From NCBI RefSeq assembly GCF_003334785.1, contig NZ_QOWV01000001.1: a stretch of DNA of 64,000 nucleotides, one strand, 5' to 3'. This DNA is from Escherichia coli (lineage in GTDB: Bacteria; Pseudomonadota; Gammaproteobacteria; Enterobacterales; Enterobacteriaceae). Positions 15,639 to 50,800 of the stretch are shown here, piece after piece (position 1 is the stretch's first letter; the number at the start of each line of letters is the position of its first letter). The notes beneath the pieces are model-generated. The model was not told the origin of the DNA. It did not search any database and was given only the letters and a program-made list of their open reading frames with translations. Both the position numbers and the translations under genes were made by a program.

Positions 15639-15665
15639 TCAAGTCCGGCGGGTCGCTGCCGATAA
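15639..15665 (+). promoter_or_regulatory. Candidate sigma-28 class 3 promoter for flgKL
   Basis: TCAAGTCC-N11-GCCGATAA: perfect sigma-28 -10 element, 5/8 match in the -35, correct 11-bp spacing; about 34 nt upstream of the flgK ATG. Confidence 0.55.
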
Positions 15666-17353: not shown

Positions 17354-18307
17354 ATGCGTTTCAGTACACAGATGATGTACCAGCAAAACATGCGTGGTAT
17401 CACCAATTCTCAGGCAGAATGGATGAAGTACGGCGAACAGATGTCGACGGGTAAGCGAGTCGTTAACCCTTCTGACGATCCCATTGCTGCATCACAAGCC
17501 GTAGTTCTCTCCCAGGCACAGGCGCAAAACAGCCAGTACACGCTGGCGCGTACTTTCGCCACTCAAAAAGTGTCACTGGAAGAGAGTGTACTTAGCCAGG
17601 TCACCACTGCTATCCAGAATGCTCAGGAAAAAATTGTCTACGCCAGCAATGGCACCTTGAGTGACGATGACCGGGCCTCGCTGGCTACGGATATTCAGGG
17701 GCTTCGTGACCAGTTGCTGAATCTGGCAAACACCACTGACGGTAACGGGCGCTACATTTTTGCCGGTTATAAAACAGAGACTGCGCCGTTTAGCGAAGAG
17801 AAAGGGAAATACGTCGGTGGAGCAGAAAGTATTAAACAACAGGTCGATGCTTCGCGTTCGATGGTGATAGGGCACACGGGTGACAAAATTTTCGACAGTA
17901 TTACCAGCAACGCGGTAGCGGAACCAGACGGTAGCGCTTCTGAAACCAATCTTTTTGCCATGCTGGATAGTGCCATCGCAGCCCTGAAAACGCCGGTCGC
18001 GGATAGCGAAGCGGATAAAGAAACCGCCGCTGCGGCGTTAGATAAAACCAACCGCGGACTGAAAAACTCGCTGAACAATGTGCTGACTGTTCGCGCGGAA
18101 TTAGGCACGCAGCTGAACGAACTGGAGTCGCTGGATTCATTAGGTAGCGATCGCGCTTTAGGGCAAACGCAGCAGATGAGCGATCTGGTTGATGTGGACT
18201 GGAATGCAACTATTTCATCTTACATCATGCAGCAAACGGCATTGCAGGCATCGTATAAAGCATTTACCGATATGCAGGGATTGTCGCTCTTCCAGCTCAG
18301 CAAATAA
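17354..18307 (+). CDS. flgL: Flagellar hook-associated protein 3, FlgL (317 aa)
   Basis: MRFSTQMMYQQNMRGITNSQAEWMKYGEQMSTGKRVVNPSDDP...; matches recalled FlgL. Confidence 0.95.
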   Translation: MRFSTQMMYQQNMRGITNSQAEWMKYGEQMSTGKRVVNPSDDPIAASQAVVLSQAQAQNSQYTLARTFATQKVSLEESVLSQVTTAIQNAQEKIVYASNGTLSDDDRASLATDIQGLRDQLLNLANTTDGNGRYIFAGYKTETAPFSEEKGKYVGGAESIKQQVDASRSMVIGHTGDKIFDSITSNAVAEPDGSASETNLFAMLDSAIAALKTPVADSEADKETAAAALDKTNRGLKNSLNNVLTVRAELGTQLNELESLDSLGSDRALGQTQQMSDLVDVDWNATISSYIMQQTALQASYKAFTDMQGLSLFQLSK

Positions 18308-18452
18308 TTTCGCTTTAAAACATATCATGAAACTGGGTATGTTTTGTCTGCCTGCTCTGGGATCGCTGGGGCGGGCATTTTTTTGCCTATTTTGCATTGT
18401 TGGTTAGCAAGGATGCCATTCGATGAATTTTAATATGTTGATTCAAAGATGA

Positions 18453-18481
18453 AATAAAAAAGCCCTGGCAGTTACCAGGGC
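18453..18481 (-). terminator. Rho-independent terminator of rne (hairpin also positioned to end the convergent flgL transcript)
   Basis: Hairpin GCCCTGG-CAGTTA-CCAGGGC (18462-18481); the minus strand continues into TTTTTTATTT, 22 nt after the rne stop. On the plus strand the hairpin is followed by a weaker T-rich tract (TTGATTACTTT). Confidence 0.75.
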
Positions 18482-18502
18482 TTGATTACTTTGAGCTAAT
18501 TA

Positions 18503-21500
18503 TTACTCAACAGGTTGCGGACGCGCAGGAGCGGCAGAGGCATGATGTGTTGCCGTATGACCACCTGCGGCACCTTTACCTTCGAAGGCAAAAGTAGGGC
18601 GCTGCCAGTCACTGTGACGCGGTGCCTCCGGAACATATTCCGGTGCTGGAGCGCGCGTCATTGGCGCGGTAGCGTGGTTATGCTCAACGGTGACCTCAGG
18701 TTCGACCGCAGCTACCGTTTCAACTTCTGCTGCGACTTCAGCGACTACTGGCGCGGCAGGTTGAGCAACAACTTCAGGTTCAGCAACTACAACCTCAGCA
18801 GTTTCGACAACTTCTTCAATATCTGCCGTCTCTTCCTGCGGTTCAACCACCGGTTCTGCTTGTTCTGCAACTTCCTGGGCTACGGCAACATCAGACTCGG
18901 TAATCACCTGCGGCTGTTCAGTTACCGCGGCAGCGATCACTTCAGGATGCGTCGTTTCAACCACTTCCGGTTGCGGTTCGGCAACCTGAACGGGGGCTTC
19001 TACGACACCGGCCACTTCTTCAACAACTGGCGCGCTAACAACCGGTTCGATAGCGGCGGCGACAGGGACCTCAGTCACCATCGGCTGCACATGTACTTCT
19101 TCCTGTTCGCGCTGCTCTTCAACCTGTACATCTTGCGGACGTACAATTGGATAGCGGATCCAGACTTTGCCAGAGGCCAGTTCCGGAGACGCGCACGCTA
19201 CGGTCAACGGCATTGGCGACTGGGTTGGATAACGCTCGTCACGATAGCGACGACGACGCTGACCACTTACGCGCAGGTGACGAGGCGAGCGGCGAGAACG
19301 ACGCGGCATGCCACCGTTGTCACGGTTATCAGCATTGTTCTCTTCTTGCTGTTCTGGTGCAGTTTGCGCTACGACTGGCAGCGGGACTTTCACCAGTTCT
19401 GTGCGTGGAGCTGGCGCTTCCTGAACAATTGGTTCGGCAGCGACAGTTTCTTCAACCACCGGTGCGACTACCGCTTCTTCGGCTACGCTTTGCTCGTAAC
19501 GCACTTTCTGATTGAGCTGACGCTGTTTACGACGCGGCTGAACCGGACGTACACGTTCTTCCTGTTCGGTTTCCTGAACAGATTGCTCTTCAACATTCAG
19601 CGCCTTCGCTTCTTGTTGCGCCTGACGTTTATCATCATTACGGCGGCGGCTACGTTCACGACGCGGCGCTTGCTGCTCGTCGGCGGTACGCGCTTTTTCC
19701 GTTACCTCAGCCTGCTGACGGCTCTCACGCGTCTCGGCAGTCTGCTGCTGTGCCTGGCGACGATTACGACGGTTTTCTTCGCGATTATCGCTGCCTTCAG
19801 TACGTTCACTACGGGTGTCGCGGCGCTCATTACGGTCACGGCGGTTGTTCTGACGAGGCTTGCGACGATCCTGTTGACGTTCCGGTTTCGCTTCTGCTTT
19901 CGGTGCTGGTTGCTCGGTCGGTTTGGTTTCTTCACCACCGCTGAACAGCGCTTTCAGTGCGCCGAAGAAGCGGCTCAACAGCCCAGGTTGTGCAGGAGCT
20001 GCTGGTGTTGCCGGTGCAGCTTTCGGTGCTGGAGCTACAACAGGCGCGGCAGGTTCAGCTGGCGTTGGCGCAGGCGGCACATCCGGCATGGCAAAGGTTG
20101 CCAGCGCAGGTTGTTCCGGACGCTTACGTTCAGCGAACTCTTCTTCAGACGGCAGCGCCATCGCTTCTTCATGCAGCTTCGGCAGCATGTAGCTTAAGGT
20201 TGGGGTTTCTTCCCCTTTACGCACGCGCAGCACGTGGTAGTGCGGGGTTTCCATCTGATCGTTTGGCACAATTACACAGCGCACACCGTCCTGACGAGTT
20301 TCAATGGCATTTACCGCAGAACGTTTTTCATTCAGCAGGTAAGAAGCGATTGGCACAGGAACAATGGCGTGAACTTCCTGGGTGTTCTCTTTCAGCGCTT
20401 CTTCTTCGATCAGACGCAGAATAGAGAGCGACAGCGATTCGTTGTCACGCACGGTGCCAGTACCAGAACAACGCGGACAAACGTGATGACTGGATTCACC
20501 CAGTGATGGGCTCAGGCGCTGACGGGACATTTCCAGCAGGCCAAAGCGAGAAATATGGCTGATTTGAATACGCGCACGGTCCTGACGCACCGCTTCACGC
20601 AGACGGTTTTCTACCGCACGCTGGTGGCGTACTGGCGTCATGTCGATGAAGTCGATAACAATCAGGCCGCCGAGGTCACGCAGGCGCAGCTGACGAGCAA
20701 TCTCATCGGCAGCTTCGAGGTTAGTGTTAAACGCGGTTTCTTCGATATCGCCGCCGCGGGTCGCGCGTGCGGAGTTGATGTCGATGGCCGTTAACGCTTC
20801 GGTGCTGTCGATAACAATGGAACCACCAGACGGCAGACGAACTTCACGCTGGAAGGCGGACTCGATCTGTGACTCGATCTGGTAGTGGCTGAACAGCGGG
20901 ATCTCGCCGGTGTACAGTTTGATTTTGCTGCTGAAATCCGGGCGACCTAATGCAGCGATATGCTGACGTGCCAGTTCGAGCACTTTCGGGTTATCGATAA
21001 GGATTTCGCCGATGTCCTGACGTAAGTAATCGCGGAATGCGCGAACGATTACGTTGCTCTCCTGATGAATCAGGAACGGGGCCGGGCGGCTTTCAGCGGC
21101 TTTTTTGATGGCTTCCCAGTGTTTCAGACGGAAGCTTAAATCCCATTGCAGCGCCTCAGCAGATTTGCCGACGCCAGCGGTGCGCACGATAAGCCCCATG
21201 CCTTCCGGCAGTTCAAGGCTTGCCAGTGCTTCTTTTAATTCGGTACGGTCGTCGCCTTCGATACGGCGAGAAATGCCACCCGCGCGCGGGTTGTTCGGCA
21301 TCAGAACCAGATAGCTACCCGCCAGACTGATAAAGGTGGTTAATGCCGCGCCTTTGTTGCCGCGCTCTTCTTTATCGATCTGAACAATGACTTCCTGACC
21401 TTCACGCAACACATCTTTAATGTTGGGACGACCATGAGCACTGTAGTTAGCAGGGAAATATTCGCGGGCAATTTCTTTTAGTGGGAGGAAACCGTGACGT

Positions 21501-21688
21501 TCAGCGCCGTAATCAACAAAAGCAGCTTCCAGACTCGGTTCAATGCGGGTGATTTTACCTTTGTAGATGTTTGCCTTTTTCTGCTCGTGCCCTGGACTTT
21601 CGATATCCAGGTCATACAGACGCTGCCCATCTACAAGGGCAACGCGCAACTCTTCCTGCTGAGTTGCGTTGATTAACATTCTTTTCAT
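18503..21688 (-). CDS. rne: Ribonuclease E (1061 aa)
   Basis: [61 protein letters not shown]... (S1 and catalytic domains), followed by an Arg-rich and then acidic/Pro-rich low-complexity C-terminal half; 1061 aa as recalled for RNase E. Confidence 0.97.
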
Positions 21689-22050
21689 CGTAACTTACTC
21701 ATTATTCTTACATTGACGACTAAGCTGCGGGCAAAGTAACGCCTTTCCGGGTGTGAACCGATGGCCTCGTGTCTAGTCGCGTCGCCAACCTCACGGTTAT
21801 CGTCAGCTCAAAGAGGCGCAGAGTGTCGGTTGCCCGTTTTTCATGCGGAAAAACAGCGCAATTATCAAAGAAACAGACTGGGTATTACTCTCCAGAAATA
21901 TTTCCATCTACCGGTAAGGACTGCAACCCGCAGCCCGCTAACTGCCTGAAAGATCAATACGTCTTACGCCATTGCTGCGTGGATGATCGGTCGGGCAAAA
22001 TGGGTTATTCCGTAAAATTTCTTGTTTTAACAAGGATGGACACGGAAACG
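21689..22050 (-). promoter_or_regulatory. rne long 5' untranslated leader (autoregulatory region)
   Basis: 572-bp non-coding gap upstream of rne. That rne has a leader of roughly 360 nt whose stem-loops mediate RNase E autoregulation is established knowledge; boundaries here are approximate and structures were not folded. Confidence 0.55.
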
Positions 22051-46393: not shown

Positions 46394-46651
46394 ATGAAAA
46401 ACGTAAAAACCCTCATCGCTGCGGCGATTTTAAGCTCCATGTCATTTGCCAGCTTTGCGGCTGTCGAAGTTCAGTCAACGCCAGAAGGCCAACAAAAAGT
46501 CGGTACAATCAGTGCTAACGCGGGGACAAATCTGGGATCGCTGGAAGAGCAGCTGGCGCAAAAAGCGGATGAGATGGGCGCAAAATCTTTCCGTATTACT
46601 TCTGTAACCGGTCCGAATACCCTCCATGGAACAGCAGTAATTTATAAATAA
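46394..46651 (+). CDS. bhsA: Stress-response / biofilm outer-membrane protein BhsA (85 aa, YdgH/BhsA family)
   Basis: MKNVKTLIAAAILSSMSFASFAAVEVQSTPEGQQKVGTISANAGTNLGSLEEQLAQKADEMGAKSFRITSVTGPNTLHGTAVIYK; matches recalled BhsA (YcfR). Confidence 0.92.
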   Translation: MKNVKTLIAAAILSSMSFASFAAVEVQSTPEGQQKVGTISANAGTNLGSLEEQLAQKADEMGAKSFRITSVTGPNTLHGTAVIYK

Positions 46652-46690
46652 GCATTAACCCTCATTAATGCCTGCTACTGCTGATTTTTT

Positions 46691-46724
46691 CCCCGCGACA
46701 TGCCGTGTCGCGGGGATTTTTTTA
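46691..46724 (+). terminator. Rho-independent terminator of bhsA
   Basis: Hairpin CCCCGCGACA-tgcc-GTGTCGCGGGG followed by ATTTTTTTTA. Confidence 0.8.
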
Positions 46725-47838: not shown

Positions 47839-50800
47839 TTAAGCGATCGCGTTCTCTTCCAGTTCACGCATAAACTGGCGTACCCATTCGATACGCGTTT
47901 TCCGCTCACTCAAATCCTGAATAAATTTCAGGCGCGTCGGACCATCAAGGCGGTAATGCTGCGGCTGTTTTTGCAGCAAACCAATCAACCAGGCCGGATT
48001 AACGTGATTCTTCTCGGCAAATTCGATCACCCCGCCTTTCTCATTACCTTCCAGCTTCCTGATCCCCAGTTTCTGCGCTTGCTGGCGCAGACGGGCAATA
48101 TCCAGCAGGGTACGCGCCGGATCTGGCAGCAGGCCGAAGCGATCGATAAGCTCGACTTTGATCTCTTCCAGTTCGTTTTCCGTTTTGGCGCTGGCAATAC
48201 GTTTGTAGAACGACAGACGCGTGTTCACGTCAGGGATGAAATCATCTGGCAATAGCGACGGCATCCGCAGCTCGACTTCTGTTTGCTGGCTGGTGAGATC
48301 TTCCAGCGACGGCTCGCGTCCGGCTTTCAGTGCATCGACGGCGTTTTCCAGCAACTCCATATACAGCGAGAAACCGATGGTTTCCATTGAGCCGCTTTGT
48401 TCTTCGCCAAGCAGTTCACCCGCGCCGCGAATCTCCAGATCGTGCGTTGCCAGCGCAAAACCTGCCCCGAGATCTTCCAGCGAGGCAATTGCTTCAAGAC
48501 GTTTTTGTGCATCGGTAGTCATCGCTTTTGGATGCGGTGTCAGCAACCATGCATATGCCTGATGATGCGAACGTCCGACGCGACCGCGTAACTGGTGCAG
48601 CTGCGCCAGACCGAAGTGATCCGCGCGTTCAATGATAATAGTGTTGGCTGTCGGGATGTCGATCCCGGTTTCGATAATGGTTGTACAAACCAGCACGTTG
48701 AAACGTTGATGATGGAAATCATTCATCACCCGTTCCAGTTCGCGCTCGCGCATCTGCCCGTGACCGATGGCGATCCGCGCTTCTGGCACCAGTTCTGCCA
48801 GCCGTTCGGCGGCTTTCTGAATGTTTTCCACATCATTGTAGAGATAATAAACCTGTCCTCCGCGCAAAATTTCACGCAGGATCGCCTCCCGGACCACCAT
48901 GCTGTCATACTCACGGACAAAGGTTTTAACTGCCAGACGACGGGCGGGCGGCGTGGCGATAATCGACAGGTCACGCATTCCGCTCATTGCCATATTCAGC
49001 GTACGTGGGATCGGCGTTGCAGTAAGCGTCAGAATATCCACGTTCGCGCGCATCGCTTTAATGCGCTCTTTATGACGCACCCCGAAGCGGTGTTCTTCAT
49101 CGACAATCAGCAGGCCTAAATCTTTAAACTTGACGTCACTTTGCAGCAGTTTGTGCGTACCGATCAGAATATCGATTTTCCCTTCCGCCACTTCCGCAAG
49201 GATTTGCGTCTGCTCTTTGGCGCTGCGGAAACGGGAGATCATTTCGATACGTACCGGCCAGTTGGCGAAACGGTCGCGGAAGTTGTCGTAATGCTGCTGC
49301 GCGAGAAGGGTGGTAGGCACCAGCACCGCCACCTGCTTGTGGTTATCTACTGCCAGGAAAGCTGCGCGCATCGCCACTTCTGTTTTACCAAAGCCAACAT
49401 CGCCGCACACCAGACGATCCATTGCCAGCGGCTGACACATGTCGCTAAGTACCGCATTAATGGCCTGCGCCTGATCCGGCGTGGTTTCAAACGGGAAGCT
49501 GTCGCAGAACAACTGATACTGCTCACGATCGTGTTTAAACGCGAAGCCCTCTTTGGCGGCGCGTTGCGCGTAGATATCCAGCAATTCCGCCGCCACATCA
49601 CGCACTTTTTCCGCCGCTTTCTGCCGCGCGCGTGACCACGCATCGCCGCCAAGTTTATGCAGCGGGGCGTTTTCTTCCGCGCCACCTGCGTAACGGCTAA
49701 TCAGATGCAGTGACGACACCGGAACATACAGTTTGGCGTCGTTGGCATAGGTGAGCATCAGATACTCGCCAGTAATGCCACCCGCTTCCAGCGTGGTCAT
49801 TCCGGCATAACGACCGACGCCGTGCTCCAGATGGACCACCGGCTGACCAATATGCAGTTCCGCAAGGTTACGGATCAGTGTATCGGGGTTGATGGTGCGG
49901 CGAGAATCCTGACGACGACGGGCAACGCGTTCACCGAGCAGATCGCTTTCGCAAATCAGCGCCAGATTACGCACCGTATCGACAAAACCATGTTCGGCAG
50001 CGCCAATCATCAGATAACGCCCACGGTCGCTGGCTTCATCAAGACGCATAATGCGTTGCGGAGCAATTTTAATTCGTGCGAGCAGTTCACCCAGCGCTTC
50101 ACGGCGACCTTCACTTTCTACCGAGAACACCACCGGACCGTCGAAAGTCTCGAGGAACTTACGCAGCGCATCCAGCGGCGCTTTTTGTTGTGCCTGAACG
50201 GCCAGGTCTGGCAGTTTCTGGAAACCTAAATTGGCATTCGCGGCTTTTGTCGGTAAATGTTCAGTTTTTAGCTGCACCCGGGGCCAGTTTTTCAGCTCTG
50301 AGAAGAGCTCGTCCACCCGCAGCCAGAGCGATTGTGGTGGCAACAGCGGGCGCATCGGATCGACGCCGCGATTCTCAAAACGCGCCAGCGTGTCAGCCTG
50401 GAAACGTTCGGCACTGGTTTCCAGATCGCCAGTATTCACGAGCAAGGTATTGGCAGGGAAATAACTGAACAGCGGCGGCAGTGGTTCGCTGAAGAACAAT
50501 GGCTGCCAGTACTCGATCCCGGCAGGTAATGTGCCTTTACTCACTTGCTGGTAAATATGTTCTGGATCGCGCTTCACTTCGAAGGTATCGCGCCACTGGC
50601 TGCGGAACAGTTCAATTGCCGCTTTATCGGTCGGAAATTCGTGCGCGGGCAGCAGATTGATCGCTTCTACTTCCTCCAGCGTGCGCTGGCTGTCGACGTC
50701 AAACACCCGCAGGCTGTCGATTTCATCATCAAAGAAATCAAGACGATAAGGCAGCTCACTCCCCATCGGGAAGAGATCCAGCAACGCGCCGCGCGTGGCG

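Follow-up and report, generated by a model that had tools for sequence, protein, structure and literature searches.

The convergent genes flgL and rne of Escherichia coli are separated by a short noncoding gap, which raises the question of where the two transcripts end and what the gap contains. We analyzed this locus in a 64,000-nt stretch of E. coli DNA (hereafter, the window; NCBI RefSeq assembly GCF_003334785.1, contig NZ_QOWV01000001.1). A preliminary description made from the sequence alone had proposed that a single hairpin terminates both genes and that flgL consequently carries a 3′ UTR of approximately 170 nt. The ORF coordinates confirmed a 195-nt convergent flgL/rne gap at 18308-18502. 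Sequence comparison showed that an 8001-nt stretch including the flgL-rne segment is identical to E. coli K-12 MG1655 (NC_000913.3), and MG1655 coordinates are obtained by adding 1,122,679 to window coordinates. The flgL-rne region was matched in all 5426 complete E. coli genomes. Compared with shuffled sequence, the gap folds beyond chance on both strands, with z-scores of -4.4 (plus) and -3.7 (minus), and a terminator scan returned seven terminator-like sites, against 1.1 ± 0.9 in shuffles. The features of the locus, in window coordinates, are as follows.

15639-15665, plus strand: sigma-28-type promoter motif (consensus search, 3 mismatches)
17354-18307, plus strand: flgL coding sequence, 317 aa, stop codon TAA at 18305-18307 (ORF list, RefSeq annotation)
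18307-18384, plus strand: FlgO sRNA (flgO, b4826), 78 nt (RefSeq, primer SM041, Term-seq, covariance model)
18316-18346, plus strand: FlgO stem-loop 1 (fold, compensatory changes)
18349-18384, plus strand: flgL/FlgO intrinsic terminator, including the U7 tract (terminator scan, fold energy, covariation, Term-seq)
18385-18450, no strand assigned: A-T-rich spacer between the terminators, 66 nt, 33% GC (GC content, insertions in the E. coli population)
18451-18483, minus strand: predicted rne intrinsic terminator (terminator scan, fold energy)
18503-21688, minus strand: rne coding sequence (RNase E, 1061 aa) (ORF list, RefSeq annotation)
21713-22049, minus strand: rne 5′ UTR autoregulatory element RF00040, full length, 260 bits (Rfam match)

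We conclude with high confidence that the gap consists of two independent, strand-specific intrinsic terminators arranged tail to tail, and that the small RNA FlgO is cut from the 3′ end of the flgKL transcript. The content of the gap is already published and annotated as FlgO; the preliminary description had pointed to a real object and misread its anatomy. The main value of the present analysis is this correction: the gap is not an unexplored 3′ UTR but holds FlgO beside what we take to be rne's own terminator. To the published FlgO it adds covariation over 61 sequences, a near-invariant loop, and a polymorphic spacer.

The flgL transcript ends at its own terminator, within FlgO

The RefSeq annotation of MG1655 contains an ncRNA gene, flgO (b4826, "small RNA FlgO"), at 1140986-1141063, an exact match to window 18307-18384. 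Its boundaries are 18307, where the flgL stop codon ends, and 18384, the final U of a U7 tract. The published FlgO cloning primers map to 18307-18329 (SM041, starting at 18307) and 18403-18425; the clone thus spans 18307-18425 and excludes the hairpin next to rne, which means that the authors' construct depends on the terminator at 18349-18384. A FlgO covariance model scored 75.7 bits at 18307-18384. A scan of Rfam 15 at E ≤ 1 gave no match overlapping FlgO, and no Rfam family covers it; the matches nearby, asX2 at 18390-18483 (22 bits, where the gathering score is 70) and BSnc120 at 18439-18500, are at chance level.

FlgO was reported to derive from the flgL 3′ UTR by processing out of the parental mRNA (Melamed et al., 2023, eLife 12:RP87151, PMC10578931). 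In the same study, northern blots of the wild type and a fliA deletion showed that it is sigma-28-dependent, Hfq co-immunoprecipitation placed it among the most Hfq-enriched RNAs, and its 5′ end was sensitive to a 5′-phosphate-dependent exonuclease, as expected of a processed end (PMC10578931). On northern blots, FlgO appeared as a doublet of about 75 nt (PMC10578931), a size consistent with 18307-18384 and inconsistent with approximately 170-180 nt. The doublet presumably reflects heterogeneity of one or two nucleotides at one end. In an independent Term-seq study, a plus-strand 3′ end at 1141063 corresponds to window 18384, and its printed flanks match the window (Adams et al., 2021, eLife, PMC7815308, supplementary file 1); this 3′ end is one entry in a curated table from which the expected rne 3′ end is missing. 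The published FlgO and the element in the window are therefore the same molecule: their sequence, coordinates, and 5′ end are identical, and the length fits. The sigma-28-dependent FlgO that the preliminary description had named as coming from the flgL 3′ end is thus borne out, both by this literature and by the annotation of b4826 within the gap.

The top-ranking site of the terminator scan in the gap was on the plus strand at 18349-18377, followed by TTTTTTT (18378-18384). Its stem pairs 18349-18360 with 18366-18377 (12 pairs, 7 of them G-C) around the 5-nt loop GAUCG, and its predicted fold energy is -19.2 kcal/mol on the plus strand versus -5.3 kcal/mol on the minus strand. Many of the pairs are G-U and fold weakly on the minus strand, which makes the terminator strand-specific; as judged from the modelled energies, this asymmetry would mean that selection has acted on the plus-strand structure. 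Contrary to the earlier claim, the hairpin near rne is therefore not the only strong one in the gap. With this terminator and the Term-seq 3′ end at 18384, the flgL 3′ UTR is about 77 nt long rather than about 170 nt. Upstream of the terminator, FlgO stem-loop 1 (18316-18346) is predicted to form an A-U-rich stem of 11 bp with a 9-nt apical loop, AUGAAACUG, at 18327-18335.

A search allowing three mismatches found a sigma-28-type motif, TCAAGTCC-N11-GCCGATAA, at 15639-15665, 34 bp upstream of flgK. It is one of four matches in the window, another of which lies upstream of flgM (7493-7519). An internal sigma-28 promoter within flgL was also considered as a source of FlgO and was rejected, as no match occurs there with up to three mismatches. 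This distribution of motifs fits an FlgO that is processed out of a longer transcript and has no promoter of its own, and the sequence at 15639-15665 predicts that this motif is the class 3 promoter driving the flgKL mRNA, the source of FlgO.

We propose the following course of events. The sigma-28-driven flgKL transcript would end at the hairpin 18349-18377 and its U7 tract, giving the 3′ end at 18384. Cleavage by an endonuclease at the stop codon of flgL would then create the 5′ end at 18307 and free the 78-nt FlgO, which is predicted to comprise a 9-nt single-stranded leader, the 11-bp stem-loop with its loop GAAACUGG, and the terminator hairpin with the U tail. The hairpin and U tail at 18349-18384 are the expected Hfq-binding 3′ module, to which Hfq would bind. 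Since the cut context, UAA|UUU, is A/U-rich and single-stranded, we infer that RNase E could be the releasing nuclease; RNase E prefers RN|WUU, with which UAA|UUU is compatible. The rne transcript would end at its own hairpin (18483..18460) and U-rich tail, and the flgL and rne transcripts would not overlap.

Both FlgO hairpins are conserved across Enterobacteriaceae

A scan for FlgL with one genome per species yielded 69 loci; the FlgL peptide patterns used did not pick up Salmonella, and a loop difference has been reported for FlgO of S. typhimurium (PMC10578931). Among these loci, an element of 71-83 nt with two hairpins and a U-tract was found directly after the flgL stop codon as 61 distinct sequences from approximately 20 enterobacterial genera, including Escherichia, Citrobacter, Kluyvera, Atlantibacter, Cedecea, Leclercia, Lelliottia, Kosakonia, Trabulsiella, Franconibacter, and others; one of the 61 sits behind a 57-nt insertion rather than at the stop codon itself. 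The flanks of the elements cannot be aligned across these genera. No such element was found after flgL or within ±1.5 kb in Pseudocitrobacter (L021, L023, L024) and Hafnia (L063, L064).

RNAalifold predicted both stems from the 61 sequences, with compensatory changes in 13 of the 18 pairs: eight of nine in stem-loop 1 and five of the nine consensus pairs in the terminator. Paired cells amounted to 97.2%, versus 27-54% when the partners were slid by one to three columns, and none of 500 column shuffles reached the observed pairing or covariation values by any measure. Both FlgO hairpins thus have strong covariation support across Enterobacteriaceae. Unlike the covarying stems, the first loop, GAAACUGG, is near-invariant: the columns G, A, A, A, and C are each retained in 56-60 of the 61 sequences, the sequence GAAACTGG is present in 47, and the core of the loop reads GAAAC(U)GG. 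We infer that this loop is a functional contact surface for RNA or protein. Divergent first-hairpin loops were seen in three places: Escherichia albertii (L009 2454-2531) has GAAGCCUGG in place of GAAACUGG, together with several compensated stem changes, and L032 (Pseudenterobacter) and L049 also differ.

FlgO and its terminator are intact in Citrobacter amalonaticus, Kluyvera, Atlantibacter, and Leclercia, where flgL and rne are separated by an MFS transporter gene and a LysR gene. The FlgO terminator therefore belongs to flgL and not to the flgL/rne junction. The MFS gene is convergent with flgL, and the FlgO-like element fills the whole gap of approximately 80-90 nt between them (L076 10954-11038; L078, L079, L080); here, the convergent MFS transcript has no structures other than the FlgO hairpins at which to end.

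The role of FlgO itself can be read in several ways. It might be a stable by-product of termination, protected by Hfq and without function, and conserved because flgL must be terminated. Overexpression of FlgO left both flagella number and motility unchanged, and its RIL-seq target set was the smallest and least reproducible among four sRNAs (PMC10578931), as this reading would lead one to expect. It does not account for stem-loop 1, which is dispensable for termination and yet covaries in nearly all of its pairs, or for a loop that has stayed near-invariant across about 20 genera whose flanks have diverged beyond alignment. The two observations point to selection on more than a terminator, and we regard a functionless FlgO as unlikely. 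Stem-loop 1 could alternatively act in cis on the flgKL mRNA, in its processing, 3′-end stability, localization, or coupling to secretion. It always follows immediately upon the flgL stop codon whatever gene lies downstream, a conserved complementary site is absent from the flg cluster, and few trans targets are known, all of which would suit a role in cis. Against this, the released fragment accumulates and is strongly enriched on Hfq, which is typical of trans-acting sRNAs from 3′ UTRs, and we consider an action in cis quite improbable.

The apical loop as a candidate recognition element

A third reading is that FlgO acts through its apical loop GAAACUGG, as a sequence-specific recognition element that would serve either as a seed for mRNA or as a protein-binding site; from sequence comparison, we put this forward tentatively, as possible but doubtful. 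The loop is an obvious target for mutagenesis. Few RIL-seq partners of FlgO were reproducible, namely gatC (four conditions) and flgA (one condition), and the authors suggested that FlgO may not be a conventional base-pairing sRNA (PMC10578931). We found no later publication that gives FlgO a function in the literature searched.

The flgA coding sequence contains the site ACCCAGUUUCG (window 7725..7715, minus strand; nt 460-470 of the CDS), which complements FlgO 18328-18338 through 10 Watson-Crick pairs and one G-U pair (-17.3 kcal/mol); none of 200 shuffles was as good. The codons at this site specify T-Q-F in E. coli versus N/S-M-L/V in two Citrobacter species, Kluyvera, Atlantibacter, and Leclercia, and CCAGUUUC does not occur on the sense strands of the flg clusters of these five. 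Pairing with flgA was accordingly rejected as the cause of loop conservation, since the complement is absent from all five other flg clusters fetched; a contact between FlgO and flgA that is specific to E. coli is possible. In gatC, the site CCCGGUUUCAU, about 100 nt from the 3′ end, forms an 11-bp complement with one G-U pair (-16.4 kcal/mol), which 3% of shuffles equaled; this pairing with the FlgO loop, seen in the E. coli sequence only, is suggestive. The 5′ UTR of ptsG, a further RIL-seq partner that lies in the window, was discarded as a candidate, its complementarity to the FlgO loop being no better than that of shuffles.

The 9-mer CCCAGTTTC, a complement of the FlgO loop, occurs four times in the window (0.42 expected), with FlgO and flgA included. 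The other two copies, at 36512-36520 (minus strand) and 48065-48073 (plus strand), are antisense to the 3′ end of ptsG and, probably, to mfd, as judged by coordinate conversion. These extra copies are probably due to chance.

rne has a predicted terminator of its own across a polymorphic spacer

On the minus strand, a predicted rne terminator with a 10-bp stem and a 4-nt loop lies at 18483..18460, followed by the tail UUUUAUUUC at 18459..18451; it begins 20 nt past the rne stop codon. It contains the hairpin GCCCTGG-CAGTTA-CCAGGGC that the preliminary description had placed at 18462-18481, exactly where we find it; with the flanking A-U pairs, it spans 18460-18483. Its fold energy is -17.2 kcal/mol on the minus strand, where UUUUAUUUC follows, and -15.7 kcal/mol on the plus strand, where it is followed by GAUUACUUUG, which has no U-tract. 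All 13 of the rne-adjacent loci examined have a hairpin and U-tract of the same design, with sequences that differ between genera. According to the terminator model, the hairpin at 18460-18483 thus belongs to rne alone and acts on the minus strand. The earlier assessment of it as a good terminator for rne and a poor one on the plus strand holds, and the part that gave it to flgL as well does not, because the FlgO terminator ends at 18384.

Between the two terminators, the spacer at 18385-18450 is apparently untranscribed. A northern probe to 18400-18480, which had been proposed for detecting an RNA from the flgL 3′ region, lies wholly downstream of FlgO and would miss it, targeting a stretch that is probably not transcribed. 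Outside Escherichia, the spacer cannot be aligned. Within E. coli, the gap was split into two separate matches in 691 of the 5426 genomes. In 687 of these (12.7% of the 5426), window 18384-18449 is replaced by an 882-bp TacAT-like cassette, whose genes for a GNAT toxin and an antitoxin of the DUF1778/TacA family have the same orientation as rne (E. coli 042: L002 3095-3976); the cassette is always present as a single chromosomal copy. The closest solved structure to the toxin is 7ak7 (E = 8e-76), and TacT (5fvj) matches as well. The remaining four genomes carry IS903B in the spacer, flanked by a 9-bp duplication of 18433-18441 (L001 1580-2654). FlgO and the rne terminator are both retained in all 691 genomes, and the FlgO segment is retained in all 5426, which fits a dispensable spacer between two transcription units. 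In E. coli, the spacer is a tolerated insertion site for the TacAT-like cassette, and the window, like K-12, has its short "empty" version. That the K-12 spacer is a remnant of the cassette was considered and dropped, as a BLAST search with a word size of 7 gave no match between the spacer and the interior of the cassette; only a short CAAAGATG motif, noticed by eye, is common to the K-12 spacer and the cassette near its right-hand junction.

These results bear on the original proposal that the hairpin at 18462-18481 is a bidirectional terminator shared by both genes, with an sRNA released from a flgL 3′ UTR of about 170 nt. Bidirectional intrinsic terminators can serve convergent genes, as described in the SEnd-seq literature, and the flgL/rne pair resembles such cases in being convergent, with a short gap and a G-C hairpin that has an A-tract on one side. 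The hairpin is real, folds almost as stably on the plus strand as on the minus strand, and was also returned by a lax scan of the plus strand; transcripts reading through the upstream terminator, which may happen at a low level, could be trimmed back to it. The difference is that flgL and rne each have their own unidirectional terminator, with a U-tract on one strand only: at 18462-18481 it lies on the minus side, at the FlgO hairpin on the plus side, and flgL reaches a stronger, canonical terminator approximately 100 nt earlier. The annotated flgO ends at 18384, as does the Term-seq signal, and FlgO is about 75 nt long. The plus-strand 3′ end that had been predicted at about 18481-18490 does not appear in the curated Term-seq list, which has no plus-strand entry beginning with 11411 (PMC7815308); this absence is weak evidence, given that the expected rne 3′ end is not listed either. 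In addition, the 882-bp cassette parts FlgO from the hairpin in the 687 genomes, and FlgO is intact in several genera in which rne is not adjacent. A shared terminator is therefore very improbable, and two separate terminators remain our reading of the gap.

There is practically no prospect that the in-frame ATG-to-TAG ORF within FlgO (ATG at 18327, 26 codons, stop codon at 18405-18407; part of the ORF 18189-18407) encodes a small hydrophobic protein instead of or besides the sRNA, and this candidate was rejected: it crosses the terminator and stops only past the mapped 3′ end (18384), ATGAAAC occurs in only 22 of the 61 orthologous sequences, the variation tracks RNA pairing with loop indels that are not multiples of three, and an upstream Shine-Dalgarno sequence is absent.

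FlgO among known sRNAs

CpxQ, SroC, and MicL-S are processed, Hfq-binding sRNAs that derive from 3′ UTRs and are of the same type as FlgO. FliX and UhpU-S (PMC10578931) likewise are cut endonucleolytically from an mRNA 3′ end near the stop codon, reuse the parental terminator and U tail as an Hfq module, and are co-regulated with the parent gene. All five differ from FlgO in having validated targets and seeds, of which FlgO has none.

A second FlgO-like copy in the window was considered and rejected: the sole other match of the covariance model was the 3′ part of BhsB, and it reflects generic terminator architecture. BhsB (b4832; 46624-46723, plus strand) is a 3′ UTR sRNA of bhsA, matched at 46655-46723 with 31 bits. 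It has the same architecture as FlgO, in that a short mRNA ends in a weak hairpin followed by a terminator with its U tail, and shows no real sequence homology to it.

Two FlgO-like elements came from assemblies with unexpected labels. A 280-nt contig labelled Arthrobacter agilis (L073) matches the terminal part of E. coli flgL (97% across its final 30 residues) and has a flgO segment identical to that of the window, and a locus labelled Chryseobacterium sp. 18061 (L042) has an enterobacterial flgL followed by a FlgO-like element. Contaminated or mislabelled public assemblies would appear to explain both.
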